A DNA stretch of 32,848 bases from Escherichia coli (GCF_003334315.1 NZ_QOWR01000053.1); one strand, 5' to 3'; shown: positions 1-32,848, counted from the first letter of the stretch. Notes: a model not told the origin generated them from the letters alone. Program-made: numbers and translations.

Positions 1-375
1 GACGAACAGTGGGGCTACGTCGGTGCTAAATCACGTCAGCGCTGGCTGTTTTACGCGTATGACAGGATACGGAGGACGGTTGTGGCGCACGTCTTCGGTG
101 AACGCACTCTGGCCACACTGGAGCGTCTTCTGAGCCTGCTGTCGGCCTTTGAGGTCGTGGTATGGATGACGGATGGCTGGCCGCTGTATGAATCCCGCCT
201 GAAGGGAAAGCTGCACGTAATCAGCAAGCGATATACGCAGCGAATTGAGCGGCATAACCTGAATCTGAGGCAGCACCTGGCACGGCTGGGACGGAAGTCG
301 CTGTCGTTCTCAAAATCGGTGGAGCTGCATGACAAAGTCATCGGGCATTATCTGAACATAAAACACTATCAGTAA
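1..375 (+). CDS. insB: IS1 transposase InsB, C-terminal part (5' end outside window); divergent IS1 isoform
   Basis: Frame 1 from position 1 and the 82..375 ORF read ...[98 protein letters not shown], recognisably InsB with several substitutions relative to the K-12 IS1 copy as I recall it. Confidence 0.9.
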
Positions 376-390
376 GTTGGAGTCATTACC
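1..390 (+). mobile_element. IS1 insertion sequence, 3' portion (element continues off the left edge); right terminus ...aaacactatcagtaagttggagtcattacc ends at 390
   Basis: Translation from position 1 matches the InsB transposase C-terminal region ([21 protein letters not shown]...[10 protein letters not shown]); the last ~30 bp match the IS1 terminal inverted repeat from memory. Confidence 0.9.
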
Positions 391-650
391 TGAAAAAAGG
401 CCAAATATGCAAGAACATATGCTAGTATACCAAAATCATTCGGCCCAAGATATCGCGCAATCCATGCACTAACAATAAACCCAAGAGCCAGTCGAATTAA
501 TTTATCAAAGATAAGCCATCCACTATTATTGATAGCAGCCAATAATCCATTATAATTGGATATTTTTGATAAAATTTGAGGGGGGATTAACTTAAGCCAG
601 AACTTATTAGGGTCATTTATATGTGACAAATTATGGTCCTTTGATAGCAT
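369..650 (-). pseudogene. Truncated N-terminal fragment (~87 codons) of a Wzx-like (MOP/PST family) polysaccharide flippase, the first gene of the O-antigen locus; reading frame runs into IS1 and stops at 369-371
   Basis: The ORF contains the motif NNSGWLIFDKLIRLALGFIVSAWIARYLGPNDFG, typical of Wzx N-termini. The DNA is visibly AT-rich, it sits about 220 bp downstream of a JUMPstart element, and the frame is interrupted at the IS1 terminus (390). Confidence 0.6.
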
Positions 651-872
651 GATAATTTTGCAATTGATTCAAACTCACAATTTTCATCAGAAACATATGT
701 TAACATAAATGTTTAAAATTTGAGTAAACTGCTAACTTCTAATATATACTCTCATTTTCTGAGTTCTTCCTCACTTTATCACTAAAGCCAACCCCGTTAA
801 TATTTAATAAATATCTTTTATTGTTTTGACTATATAACCGATAATTATCTGCCGTTTTTTATTAAAACTGGA

Positions 873-911
873 CACGCTACCGCCCCTGGCTTTACAGCTA
901 CCAGAGCACTG
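873..911 (-). promoter_or_regulatory. JUMPstart element containing the ops site (GGCGGTAGCGTG on the minus strand), the RfaH antitermination signal for the O-antigen operon
   Basis: The plus strand reads cacgctaccgcccctggctttacagctaccagagcactg, the reverse complement of the 39-bp JUMPstart consensus CAGTGCTCTGGTAGCTGTAAAGCCAGGGGCGGTAGCGTG. Confidence 0.85.
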
Positions 912-1169
912 CATGCATGCCTACGATGTGACGAGCGTTACCCACTCGCGCTAAACCCGAAAAATTCAAACGCTAATTGTCTTACCAATCCGCTCTGGAA
1001 ACAAGGAAAATCCTGGAAAACTTTGACTAAAATCCTATTGCTAACTCGTTGTTATTCTGATTATTTATATAAAACAACGGCAGGAATATTCGCAACAAAT
1101 TACTTTCGCCACGAATCTTCACCGCCGTTATAATTTTCTTATCAACCGTTACATCCGGTCAGATTTTCA

Positions 1170-29636: not shown

Positions 29637-30218
29637 TTAGTCTTTATCGATTCGGCTGGCTACCGCGCCCTGCTGGTTGCGATACTTCGCATCTTCACGG
29701 CGGTTGTAAGGTCGCGCCGCCGGGCCGGAAAGCGGCTCAAAGCTCAGCGCACCAATTAACATGCCCGGACGCAGCGCCAGCGGCAGCTTACCGGAGTTGT
29801 AGAACTCCAGCACAATGCAGCCAGACCAGCCCGGATCGATGCGGTGCGCGGTGACGTGCACCATCAGCCCCAGACGCGCCAAAGAGGAACGCCCGTCCAG
29901 CCAGCCCACCAGATCGGCTGGCAGCGTCACCGACTCCAGCGTCACCGCCAGCGCCAGCTCTCCAGGGTGAAGATAGAACGCCTCGCCCTCGTCGAGAACG
30001 ATCTCATCGCTCATCACGCGGTCAAGCGCGGCGCTCACTTCATCTTTGGGACCGCTCAGATCGATAAACGCTGCCGTGTGACCACGGAAGGTACGAAATT
30101 TATTGCCCAGGCGTACATCCACCGTCGCGCCGTTAATACGCTCCACTGGCGGACGTGGGTTGATCGACAAACGGCCTTCATCAAGCCAAGCTTCAATATC
30201 TCGGTCACACAGACGCAT
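29637..30218 (-). CDS. dcd: dCTP deaminase Dcd
   Basis: 193 aa, [38 protein letters not shown], a highly conserved Dcd sequence. Confidence 0.95.
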
Positions 30219-30309
30219 GGCATTTTCTCCTTTCGCGCATCACTCCCTTAACGCCAGTTACGTCAAGGGCATACCAGGTTATCACTGAACGGTACACAAT
30301 TTATCAAGC

Positions 30310-30951
30310 TTATTCAAAGAACTGACTTATTTTCGCTTTCAATATATCGATCGCGATGCGGTTTTTCCCGCCGCGCGGCACGATAATGTCCGCATATTGT
30401 TTAGAAGGCTCAATGAATTGCAGGAACATCGGGCGCACGGTTTTTTGATATTGCGCCATCACGGAATCCATTGAACGCCCACGCTCGTTAACGTCACGCT
30501 TGATGCGGCGCATCAGGCAGATATCCAGCGGGGTATCAACGAAAATGGAGAAGTTAAGTTCGTCACGCAAACGCGCATCCGTCAGCAACAAAATGCCTTC
30601 GAGAATGATGACCTTCTTCGGCTCAACCGTCACCGTTTCTTTCATACGCGTATGTTCAACATAGCTGTAAACCGGCAGGTCAATTGCCGAGCCGCGTTTC
30701 AACGCTTGTAAATGCTCAAGCAACAGGCTGTGATCCATCGCGCTGGGATGGTCGTAGTTGGTCTTAACGCGTTCTTCCATCGACAGATGGCTTTGATCTT
30801 TGTAATAGCAGTCTTCGGGAATTACGCCGATGTGTTCATCACCGACTTGCTCACGTAATTCACGATAAAGGGTACTGGCAATAAGACTCTTGCCGGAAGC
30901 CGATGCGCCAGCGATACCGATAATGACGCACTGATGAGACTGATCAGTCAT
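30310..30951 (-). CDS. udk: Uridine/cytidine kinase Udk
   Basis: Translation from [37 protein letters not shown] (Walker A); ATG at 30949-30951 chosen over the upstream start in the ORF track. Confidence 0.93.
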
Positions 30952-31268
30952 ATATTTAGCGACCTGATTAACCTGGATGTTAGGAAGGGGGCGACGAAGC
31001 GCCAAACGCGGCAATTATAGGGATTTCATCCGTCTGATACCAGTCGAATAGCGTTGCCGCGCGCTCAGAGTTAATTGTTGACAAAGAATTCCCGGTGGCA
31101 AATTACGTTGATCAGTTTTATGTAAGGTAAAAAATGTTATACGCAGTTGCGCAAATTATCCGCCTTTACGTCACTTTATGAGCAATTCGCATATAAAATG
31201 TAAAACTTTTGTACTAGCATAAACACAGAAACGAATACTGGCGACCTGGTCTTGCGGATAAAGCGGTA

Positions 31269-32777
31269 ATGAGCAAACAATCACAGCATGTATTAATTGC
31301 CCTGCCCCACCCGCTGCTTCACCTGGTCAGTTTAGGTTTAGTCTCGTTTATCTTTACCCTTTTCTCGCTTGAGCTTTCGCAGTTTGGCACCCAACTCGCC
31401 CCACTGTGGTTCCCGACGTCCATCATGATGGTGGCGTTTTATCGCCATGCCGGGCGCATGTGGCCGGGAATTGCGCTGAGCTGTTCGCTGGGAAATATCG
31501 CCGCATCCATCCTGCTTTTTTCCACCAGCTCGCTGAACATGACCTGGACGACCATCAATATTGTTGAAGCCGTGGTCGGGGCAGTGCTGCTACGTAAATT
31601 GCTGCCGTGGTATAACCCCTTGCAAAATCTGGCTGACTGGCTGCGTCTGGCACTCGGCAGCGCCATTGTTCCGCCTCTGTTGGGGGGTGTTCTGGTTGTC
31701 CTGCTGACGCCCGGAGACGATCCTCTCAGGGCATTTTTGATATGGGTACTGTCAGAATCCATCGGCGCTCTGGCACTGGTGCCGCTGGGATTGTTATTTA
31801 AACCACACTATCTGCTGCGCCATCGCAACCCACGGTTGCTTTTTGAGTCGCTGCTCACGTTAGCCATCACACTGACGTTAAGCTGGCTTTCGATGCTGTA
31901 TCTGCCGTGGCCTTTTACTTTCATTATTGTGCTGTTGATGTGGAGCGCCGTGCGTCTGCCACGAATGGAAGCCTTTTTGATCTTCCTTACCACGGTGATG
32001 ATGGTGTCGCTGATGATGGCCGCGGATCCCTCCCTGCTTGCTACGCCGCGTACGTACCTGATGAGCCATATGCCGTGGCTACCGTTTTTGCTGATCCTGC
32101 TGCCCGCCAACATCATGACCATGGTGATGTATGCCTTTCGTGCGGAACGCAAACACATTTCCGAAAGCGAAACCCACTTTCAGAACGCGATGGAATATTC
32201 CGCTATCGGTATGGCGTTAGTGGGCACCGAGGGACAATGGCTGCAAACCAACAAAGCGCTCTGCCAGTTTCTCGGGTACAGTCAGGAAGAGCTGCGCGGA
32301 CTCACCTTTCAGCAACTGACCTGGCCGGAGGATCTCAATAAAGATCTCCAACAGGTTGAAAAGCTGATAAGCGGTGAAATAAACACCTATTCAATGGAAA
32401 AACGCTACTACAACCGCAATGGCGATGTTGTCTGGGCGTTGCTTGCCGTCTCACTGGTGCGCCACACGGATGGCACGCCGCTCTATTTTATCGCTCAGAT
32501 TGAAGACATTAACGAGCTAAAACGCACCGAACAGGTCAATCAGCAACTGATGGAGCGCATCACTCTGGCTAACGAAGCGGGCGGGATTGGCATCTGGGAG
32601 TGGGAGTTGAAGCCGAATATTTTTAGCTGGGATAAGCGGATGTTCGAGCTGTATGAAATTCCTCCACATATCAAACCGAACTGGCAGGTGTGGTACGAGT
32701 GCGTGCTGCCGGAAGATCGCCAGCATGCCGAAAAAGTGATTCGTGATTCGTTGCAATCACGCTCGCCCTTTAGGTAA
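31269..32777 (+). pseudogene. dgcE: dgcE (yegE) diguanylate cyclase gene truncated after codon 502 by IS1 insertion; retains the N-terminal MASE1 membrane region and part of the PAS region, lacks the GGDEF and EAL domains
   Basis: The N-terminus MSKQSQHVLIALPHPLLHLVSLGLVSFIFTLFSLELSQFGTQLAPLWFPTSIMMVAFYRH... is recognisably DgcE. The frame ends ...LQSRSPFR followed by a TAA at 32775-32777 that lies inside the IS1 left inverted repeat starting at 32773. The full-length protein is about 1105 aa. Confidence 0.85.
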
Positions 32778-32848
32778 TGGTGCCAACTTACTGATTTAGT
32801 GTATGATGGTGTTTTTGAGGTGCTCCCGTGGCTTCCATCTCCATCAGT
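32773..32848 (+). mobile_element. IS1 insertion sequence, 5' (left) end including the left inverted repeat; element continues off the right edge
   Basis: ggtaatggtgccaacttactgatttagtgtatgatggtgtttttgaggtgctcccgtggcttccatctccatcagt matches the IS1 left end (canonical ggtgatgctgccaacttactgatttagtgtatgatggtgtttttgaggtgctccagtggcttctgtttctatcagc) with a few substitutions. Confidence 0.9.
32828..32848 (+). CDS. insA: IS1 InsA, first 7 codons (GTG start), partial at window edge
   Basis: GTG GCT TCC ATC TCC ATC AGT encodes (M)ASISIS, corresponding to the canonical InsA N-terminus (M)ASVSIS at the expected offset from the IS1 left end. Confidence 0.5.

Follow-up and report, generated by a model that had tools for sequence, protein, structure and literature searches.

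Two separate IS1 junctions, one in the O-antigen cluster and one in dgcE, bound a draft contig of Escherichia coli that carries the colanic acid genes

We analysed a stretch of 32,848 nt from Escherichia coli (GCF_003334315.1, NZ_QOWR01000053.1; hereafter the window, always meant at its full length), which carries galF, the colanic acid (wca/cps) gene cluster and the genes from there to dgcE, and which starts and ends inside the insertion sequence IS1. The original prediction, made from the sequence alone, had seen in this arrangement a colanic acid locus bracketed by two direct IS1 repeats and had drawn from it a substrate for rearrangement or mobilisation. The features at the two ends, on which the interpretation depends, are the following (positions are counted from the first letter of the window).

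1-390, plus strand: 3′ part of IS1 (IS1 positions 379-768), 389/390 identical to an annotated full-length IS1 and cut at the contig start
1-375, plus strand: C-terminal 124 codons of InsB with the stop, the product matching Pfam DDE_Tnp_IS1 (PF03400)
368-390, plus strand: right terminal inverted repeat of IS1
391-650, minus strand: 5′ 260 nt of wzx (O-antigen flippase), that is 86 codons and 2 nt, at 99.9% identity to the intact 455-aa gene of NZ_CM151356.1
31269-32772, plus strand: 5′ part of dgcE, cut after nucleotide 1504 of 3318, as seen by translation and by comparison with K-12
32773-32848, plus strand: first 76 nt of IS1, 76/76 identical to the IS1 of NZ_CP023826.1 and cut at the contig end
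32773-32795, plus strand: left terminal inverted repeat of IS1

The presence of IS1 at both termini, reading on the plus strand and with its termini at 390 and 32773, as originally predicted, was borne out by the comparison with annotated copies: both fragments align over their length (389/390 and 76/76) and both have the same orientation. The flanking nonamers, tgaaaaaag at 391-399 and cgcccttta at 32764-32772, are also as quoted. Precisely, window positions 1-390 match a full-length annotated IS1 of the complete E. coli genome NZ_CP063487.1 at 389/390 positions and that of NZ_CP023826.1 at 380/390, so that the right part of the element is closest to one IS1 isoform and the left end to another. 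The terminal 23-mers (32773-32795 against the reverse complement of 368-390) agree at 20/23 positions and come from different copies. The InsB C-terminal 124 aa are open, with insA and the frameshift site falling outside the window, and comparison with IS1 revealed no further IS1 sequence within it. The two IS1 fragments represent separate events at separate sites; the original prediction had named two independent insertions or a recombinant pair.

What this bracketing means depends on the origin of the window. It is the whole of contig QOWR01000053.1 (32,848 bp, from base 1 to the last) of the draft assembly GCA_003334315.1, a fact that had escaped the original prediction. The 93-aa product of the open reading frame (ORF) at 369-650, in which the wzx remnant is fused to IS1 sequence, has an exact match in this contig in a look-up of predicted products in a public collection, and a product of the contig is labelled in its source record as "hypothetical protein APT07_19125 [Escherichia coli]" (RCQ24816.1). 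A Shigella origin was considered, since an IS1-rich, Shigella-like genome had been proposed; the name in the source record does not support it. Short-read contigs stop where repeats start, because assemblers are unable to cross them. Here, QOWR01000039.1 (hereafter contig 39), a second contig of this assembly, opens with 76 nt that are the exact reverse complement of window positions 32773-32848; a stub of this length would be expected from a de Bruijn assembler with k = 77. The truncated 124-aa InsB product of the window start was found in 110 blocks of the public collection, and in every place shown it stood at a contig end with unrelated neighbouring genes. Fragmentation of draft assemblies by insertion sequences has been described (PMC12828178), and the window shows all the features of repeat-induced contig ends in short-read assemblies, with no difference from this standard behaviour: it is a whole contig and its terminal stub is common to another contig end of the assembly. 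Since the window is an entire draft contig, a repeat at each end is expected and uninformative. The IS1 bracketing is thus mostly a consequence of contig boundaries; direct IS1 ends do bound 32.4 kb, as had been observed. The same orientation of the two copies has a prior probability of one half. A literature search on the assembly, the run or the accession found nothing.

The junctions themselves are genuine and are not assembly chimeras. The wzx-IS1 junction also occurs in a metagenome contig of the European Nucleotide Archive (L005), the dgcE-IS1 junction in contigs from five Logan samples, and the junction of IS1 with a glycosyltransferase gene at the end of contig 39 (see below) in contigs from five Logan samples and three further runs. 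In the Logan contigs of run SRR1122540, which were built with a much shorter word than the QOWR01 assembly, the same two flanks end 28-29 nt into IS1.

At the left end, the 5′ part of wzx directly adjoins IS1, a remnant that the original prediction had overlooked, and the left IS1 therefore lies within the O-antigen cluster rather than beside galF. In NZ_CM151356.1 (L001), in which the gene is uninterrupted, wzx is the first gene past galF, and it is followed by a hypothetical membrane-protein gene at the wzy position, three glycosyltransferase genes, gmd, fcl, gmm, manC, another glycosyltransferase gene and manB, and then by gnd. Window position 391 corresponds to position 14001 of this genome, positions 391-1300 are 99.9% identical to it, and the N-terminus of the wzx remnant is identical to that of the protein P0021. 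The wzx-IS1 junction was found in 0/5,426 complete E. coli genomes. In many unrelated complete genomes (matches H4-H23 to window 1-1300) an IS1 lies within ~1 kb of galF at the start of the O-antigen cluster, which suggests that IS1 often inserts in this galF-proximal junction region.

On contig 39 are found ugd, gnd and the O-antigen genes of the distal part. When read in the orientation of the window, the 11,167 bp analysed from this contig follow positions 9-11101 of NZ_CM151356.1 at 99.93% identity and then enter the left end of an IS1, while the window leaves the right end of an IS1 at position 14001 of the same genome. The simplest and most likely layout is contig 39, one plus-strand IS1 and then the window. 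Under this layout the 2,899 bp between 11102 and 14000 of NZ_CM151356.1 are absent. They comprise the initial 473 nt of a 307-aa glycosyltransferase gene, the entire gene at the wzy position and the final 1,108 nt of wzx. The original prediction had compared the two inner flanks of the window and had excluded on that ground a single target duplication; such a comparison is uninformative, since for each copy its own two flanks are needed. The left copy is probably flanked by ccccatgaa (left) and tgaaaaaag (right), which show no 8-9-bp duplication, whereas control IS1 copies carry target-site duplications of 9 bp (L033) and 8 bp (L007). The proposed check for a target duplication was in this way carried through for the left copy, for which it points away from a simple insertion: the missing duplication together with the missing 2,899 bp argues for an IS1-associated deletion. 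The left IS1 would be the footprint either of a deletion adjacent to IS1 or of a recombination between two former IS1 copies, two routes that leave indistinguishable products.

Deletions of 11-66 kb immediately adjacent to IS1 are documented in E. coli (PMC10569738). The case described here resembles them in that an IS1 end abuts a truncated gene and, for the left copy, in that kilobases are missing with no duplication; it differs only in the sites, namely wzx/glycosyltransferase and dgcE nucleotide 1504.

We also weighed whether nothing was deleted on the left and two IS1 copies flank the 2.9-kb piece (3′ part of wzx, wzy, 5′ part of the glycosyltransferase gene) on a small separate contig. 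The two contig ends are compatible with such a retained piece, and small contigs fell outside the product look-ups, which took the longest-contig blocks first. Against this, the collection, an index of exact products, contains neither of the two products predicted for the wzx-distal part (one starting at Met94, the other at a TTG in the IS1 end), although it does list the analogous hybrid product with which contig 39 begins. In addition, no wzx or wzy cluster member from this assembly was among those listed, the wzy-position product included, in the longest-contig blocks that were read. We consider a retained piece unlikely and keep the deletion as the preferred reading of the left end.

Contig 39 shows further damage. 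By comparison with NZ_CM151356.1, 1-nt deletions within 520-2669 of contig 39 (L035), at positions corresponding to 8920 and 10069 of that genome, affect two more glycosyltransferase genes: a 370-aa glycosyltransferase gene is split into products of 215 aa and 171 aa, and a 336-aa GT4 gene is disrupted, while gmd, fcl, gmm, manC and manB are still open. The O-antigen cluster has thus been damaged at least three times, and on account of the deletion and the two frameshifts the strain should be without O antigen. In K-12 the O-antigen cluster is interrupted by an IS5 in wbbL. An inactivating IS1 has been reported within the O-antigen cluster of E. coli O62 (PMC4384082). The present cluster shares with these an insertion sequence between galF and gnd and the loss of gene function. 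It differs from them by the complete removal of the flippase gene and of the gene at the polymerase position and by frameshifts in two further glycosyltransferase genes, so that it has decayed repeatedly. As to the serogroup, this type of cluster (L001 10651-14260 and L008 10001-15735) has no serogroup-specific NCBIfam match, with generic flippase and glycosyltransferase models scoring below cut-off; the cluster-specific proteins fall in small groups of 33-50 members that are named only flippase, hypothetical or glycosyltransferase, with no serogroup names.

At the right end, the proposed alignment with K-12 was informative from asmA to dgcE: the two sequences align up to the break after dgcE nucleotide 1504, where K-12 dgcE goes on with AACTGGAATTTCGC and the window with IS1. 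The dgcE reading frame runs into IS1 and stops at 32775-32777, to give a 502-aa product in which Pfam finds the MASE1 and PAS domains only, since GGDEF and EAL are in the missing part. Whether the event was an insertion or a deletion, the sensor part is no longer joined to these two domains. In a natural allele, a 1-nt deletion that shifts the frame at DgcE residue 486 (H486) abolishes CsgD and curli, which wild-type dgcE restores by complementation (PMC6029578). The allele of the window is like that one in being truncated near codon 500 with removal of GGDEF and EAL, and unlike it in being due to IS1 rather than to a 1-nt deletion; by analogy, DgcE-dependent curli expression should be abolished here, a loss that is in this case predicted.

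IS1 was found in dgcE at three other sites in complete E. coli genomes (L032, L033 and L034), after nucleotides 1590, 1647 and 2565, so that all these insertions sit at positions different from that of the window. In every case the orientation was the same as here, that is, the orientation of dgcE. Such insertions are recurrent. One of the three is a simple insertion with a 9-bp duplication. In the other two yegJ directly follows IS1, with no duplication, which means that the 3′ part of dgcE, alkA, yegD and yegI were lost, an estimated ~5-6 kb on the annotated gene coordinates.

These two genomes raise the possibility that the right IS1 of the window, too, marks a deletion or rearrangement and did not simply insert into dgcE. 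The distal DgcE product expected from K-12 (568 aa, from the first ATG past the junction) points the same way: it occurs in unrelated short contigs alone, which start close to this ATG, and was not found in this assembly. This negative is weak, because the query was of K-12 type and the strain's own product may differ by one residue; in the asmA-dgcE part no complete genome exceeds 99.3% identity to the window. The third dgcE case, moreover, is a simple insertion. On balance a scar at the right end is a tentative possibility, somewhat less probable than its opposite, and a sequence running from the right end of IS1 through CGCCCTTTA into AACTGGAATTTCGC would tell against it, since it would denote a simple insertion with a 9-bp duplication.

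We then considered the segment between the two copies as a unit. The window is collinear throughout with uninterrupted E. coli chromosomes such as NZ_CM151356.1, in which both wzx and dgcE are intact at the two IS1 sites, and K-12 aligns with it from asmA to dgcE. The collinearity inside the window and, by way of contig 39, outside it on the left places the 32.4-kb segment at its native chromosomal location, with no sign that it moved as a unit. For this reason the composite-transposon-like mobilisation that had been proposed is not supported. A transposon or translocatable unit of the Tn9 type, moving or moved as a block, would share with the window a DNA segment enclosed by two IS1 ends of the same orientation. 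In the window, differently from Tn9, the enclosed 32.4 kb are native chromosomal DNA in its usual place, as shown by both inner flanks and, on the left, by the probable outer flank, with no common outer duplication and no second location: in place of a non-native site with one outer target duplication, we found collinearity inside, contig 39 as the left neighbour and a left copy with no target duplication. Only the inner 390 nt and 76 nt of the two IS1 copies are within the contig. The transposition of IS1-flanked units also drops steeply with length. The Tn9-like reading is already largely refuted by the native position, and we regard it as very improbable.

An equally remote alternative is that a single IS1 supplies both window ends, in a segment that forms a circle or a tandem amplification with one IS1 between successive repeats. 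The contig is formally closable on itself, as its left end is at the right terminus of IS1 and its right end at the left terminus, in the same orientation. In disagreement with this alternative, the left end already has a syntenic partner in contig 39, the genes are ordinary chromosomal ones at their native position, the two fragments match different IS1 isoforms best, and no depth information supports an amplification. Direct repeats recombine to give deletion or duplication, not inversion. Of the rearrangements proposed in the original prediction, therefore, deletion by homologous recombination stands in principle, as duplication also would, and inversion does not; this potential of the 32.4 kb is general to neighbouring insertion sequences of the same orientation, and nothing shows that it was realised here. 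That the colanic acid segment has been dynamically duplicated, amplified or excised in this lineage seems to us highly improbable; if it were so, the dosage of the colanic acid genes would be heterogeneous in a strain already without O antigen and DgcE.

Between the two junctions the window carries the following further features.

873-911, minus strand: JUMPstart, leader of the O-antigen operon (Rfam RF01707, 60 bits, gathering score 35)
1170-2063, minus strand: galF, intact; full-length ORF, with GalF annotated at the matching position of NZ_CM151356.1
2238-25060, minus strand: colanic acid cluster of 20 genes, with ORF lengths that agree with the annotated genes in NZ_CM151356.1 and L021
25239-25277, minus strand: JUMPstart upstream of wza (Rfam RF01707, 57.3 bits)
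25719-27302, plus strand: yegH, intact, by comparison of the ORF with annotation
27762-29615, minus strand: asmA, intact
29637-30218, minus strand: dcd, intact
30310-30951, minus strand: udk, intact

The last three genes were judged intact from their ORFs, the annotation of K-12 and NZ_CM151356.1, and the called genes in L003. The gene content that had been predicted (galF, the wca/cps cluster, yegH, asmA, dcd, udk and a dgcE fragment) was in this way confirmed, as full-length ORFs against annotated genomes for all but the truncated dgcE. The colanic acid cluster runs from wcaM at the 2238 end through wcaL, wcaK, wzxC, wcaJ, cpsG, cpsB, wcaI, gmm, fcl, gmd, wcaF, wcaE, wcaD, wcaC, wcaB, wcaA, wzc and wzb to wza at 25060: all 20 genes from wza to wcaM are present in K-12 order, with open frames and with the JUMPstart upstream of wza. 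Lying between the two IS1 copies, the cluster is undamaged and no more than a bystander.

Two elements were seen between cpsB and cpsG, namely an algC RNA motif (10624-10673, minus strand, 77 bits) and a naRNA4 element derived from REP sequences (10760-10830, plus strand, 75 bits). In the intergenic region between yegH and asmA (27291-27759), two REP-type inverted arms of 55 nt (27291-27345 and 27705-27759; 87% complementary) are separated by 359 nt. Some of the intervening DNA aligns with K-12 and NZ_CM151356.1 only when inverted (85-90% identity), and the spacer is ~190 bp longer than in NZ_CM151356.1. The difference is a REP-flanked inversion or size polymorphism.

The similarity to NZ_CM151356.1 is not uniform along the window, with ~1 difference per kb over 391-14000 (and likewise in contig 39) and ~20 per kb from 14001 on. 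The change, at 13900-14100 in the gmm/fcl region, looks like a recombination breakpoint: the O-antigen cluster, galF and the wca genes of the distal half would have a common history, different from that of the remainder of the window. The complete genome closest to the left half of the window has 27 places that match IS1, against a median of 10. For 27705-32772, from asmA to dgcE, the best match among the 5,426 complete E. coli genomes is only 99.3%, so that the backbone lineage is not closely represented among complete genomes.

Taken as a whole, the window is very probably a draft contig bounded by repeats, with two real and separate IS1 junctions and a chromosome segment in its usual place. 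The assembler would have stopped inside IS1 at both ends, since a multi-copy repeat could not be extended. On the left, one plus-strand IS1 would join contig 39 to the window, with 2,899 bp of the O-antigen cluster lost through a deletion adjacent to IS1 or through recombination between two former IS1 copies; on the right, a second IS1 of the same orientation would interrupt dgcE after nucleotide 1504. The observation of the original prediction is thus confirmed, and its interpretation is partly supported.

Several points weigh against this explanation. Contig 39 is placed next to the window by synteny and by the matching IS1 ends, not by a spanning read or sequence, and any contig that ends in the left end of an IS1 could formally be the neighbour. 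The left end and the right part match different isoforms, a single hybrid copy being possible, and IS1 positions 77-378 are absent from the window. A chimera of positions 1-378 of the IS1 of L007 and window 1-390 had no match above 99.0% in the 5,426 complete E. coli genomes, a result that is uninformative because positions 77-378 were assumed in it. The failed look-ups of the wzx-distal and wzy products are weak negatives, as the index holds exact products only and the reading covered only the longest-contig blocks. The outer flank of the right IS1 has not been recovered, and the two phenotypes are predictions rather than measurements.

The kind of event described here is ordinary and already known, and corresponds to routine genome decay in one E. 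coli lineage. A more general caution follows for draft assemblies, in which a locus that seems to be bracketed by insertion sequences is usually a contig that ends at repeats and not a composite transposon. Both junctions recur in other public samples and are usable as markers of the lineage. As for its biology, the strain is predicted to make no O antigen and no curli, while its colanic acid pathway should be intact.

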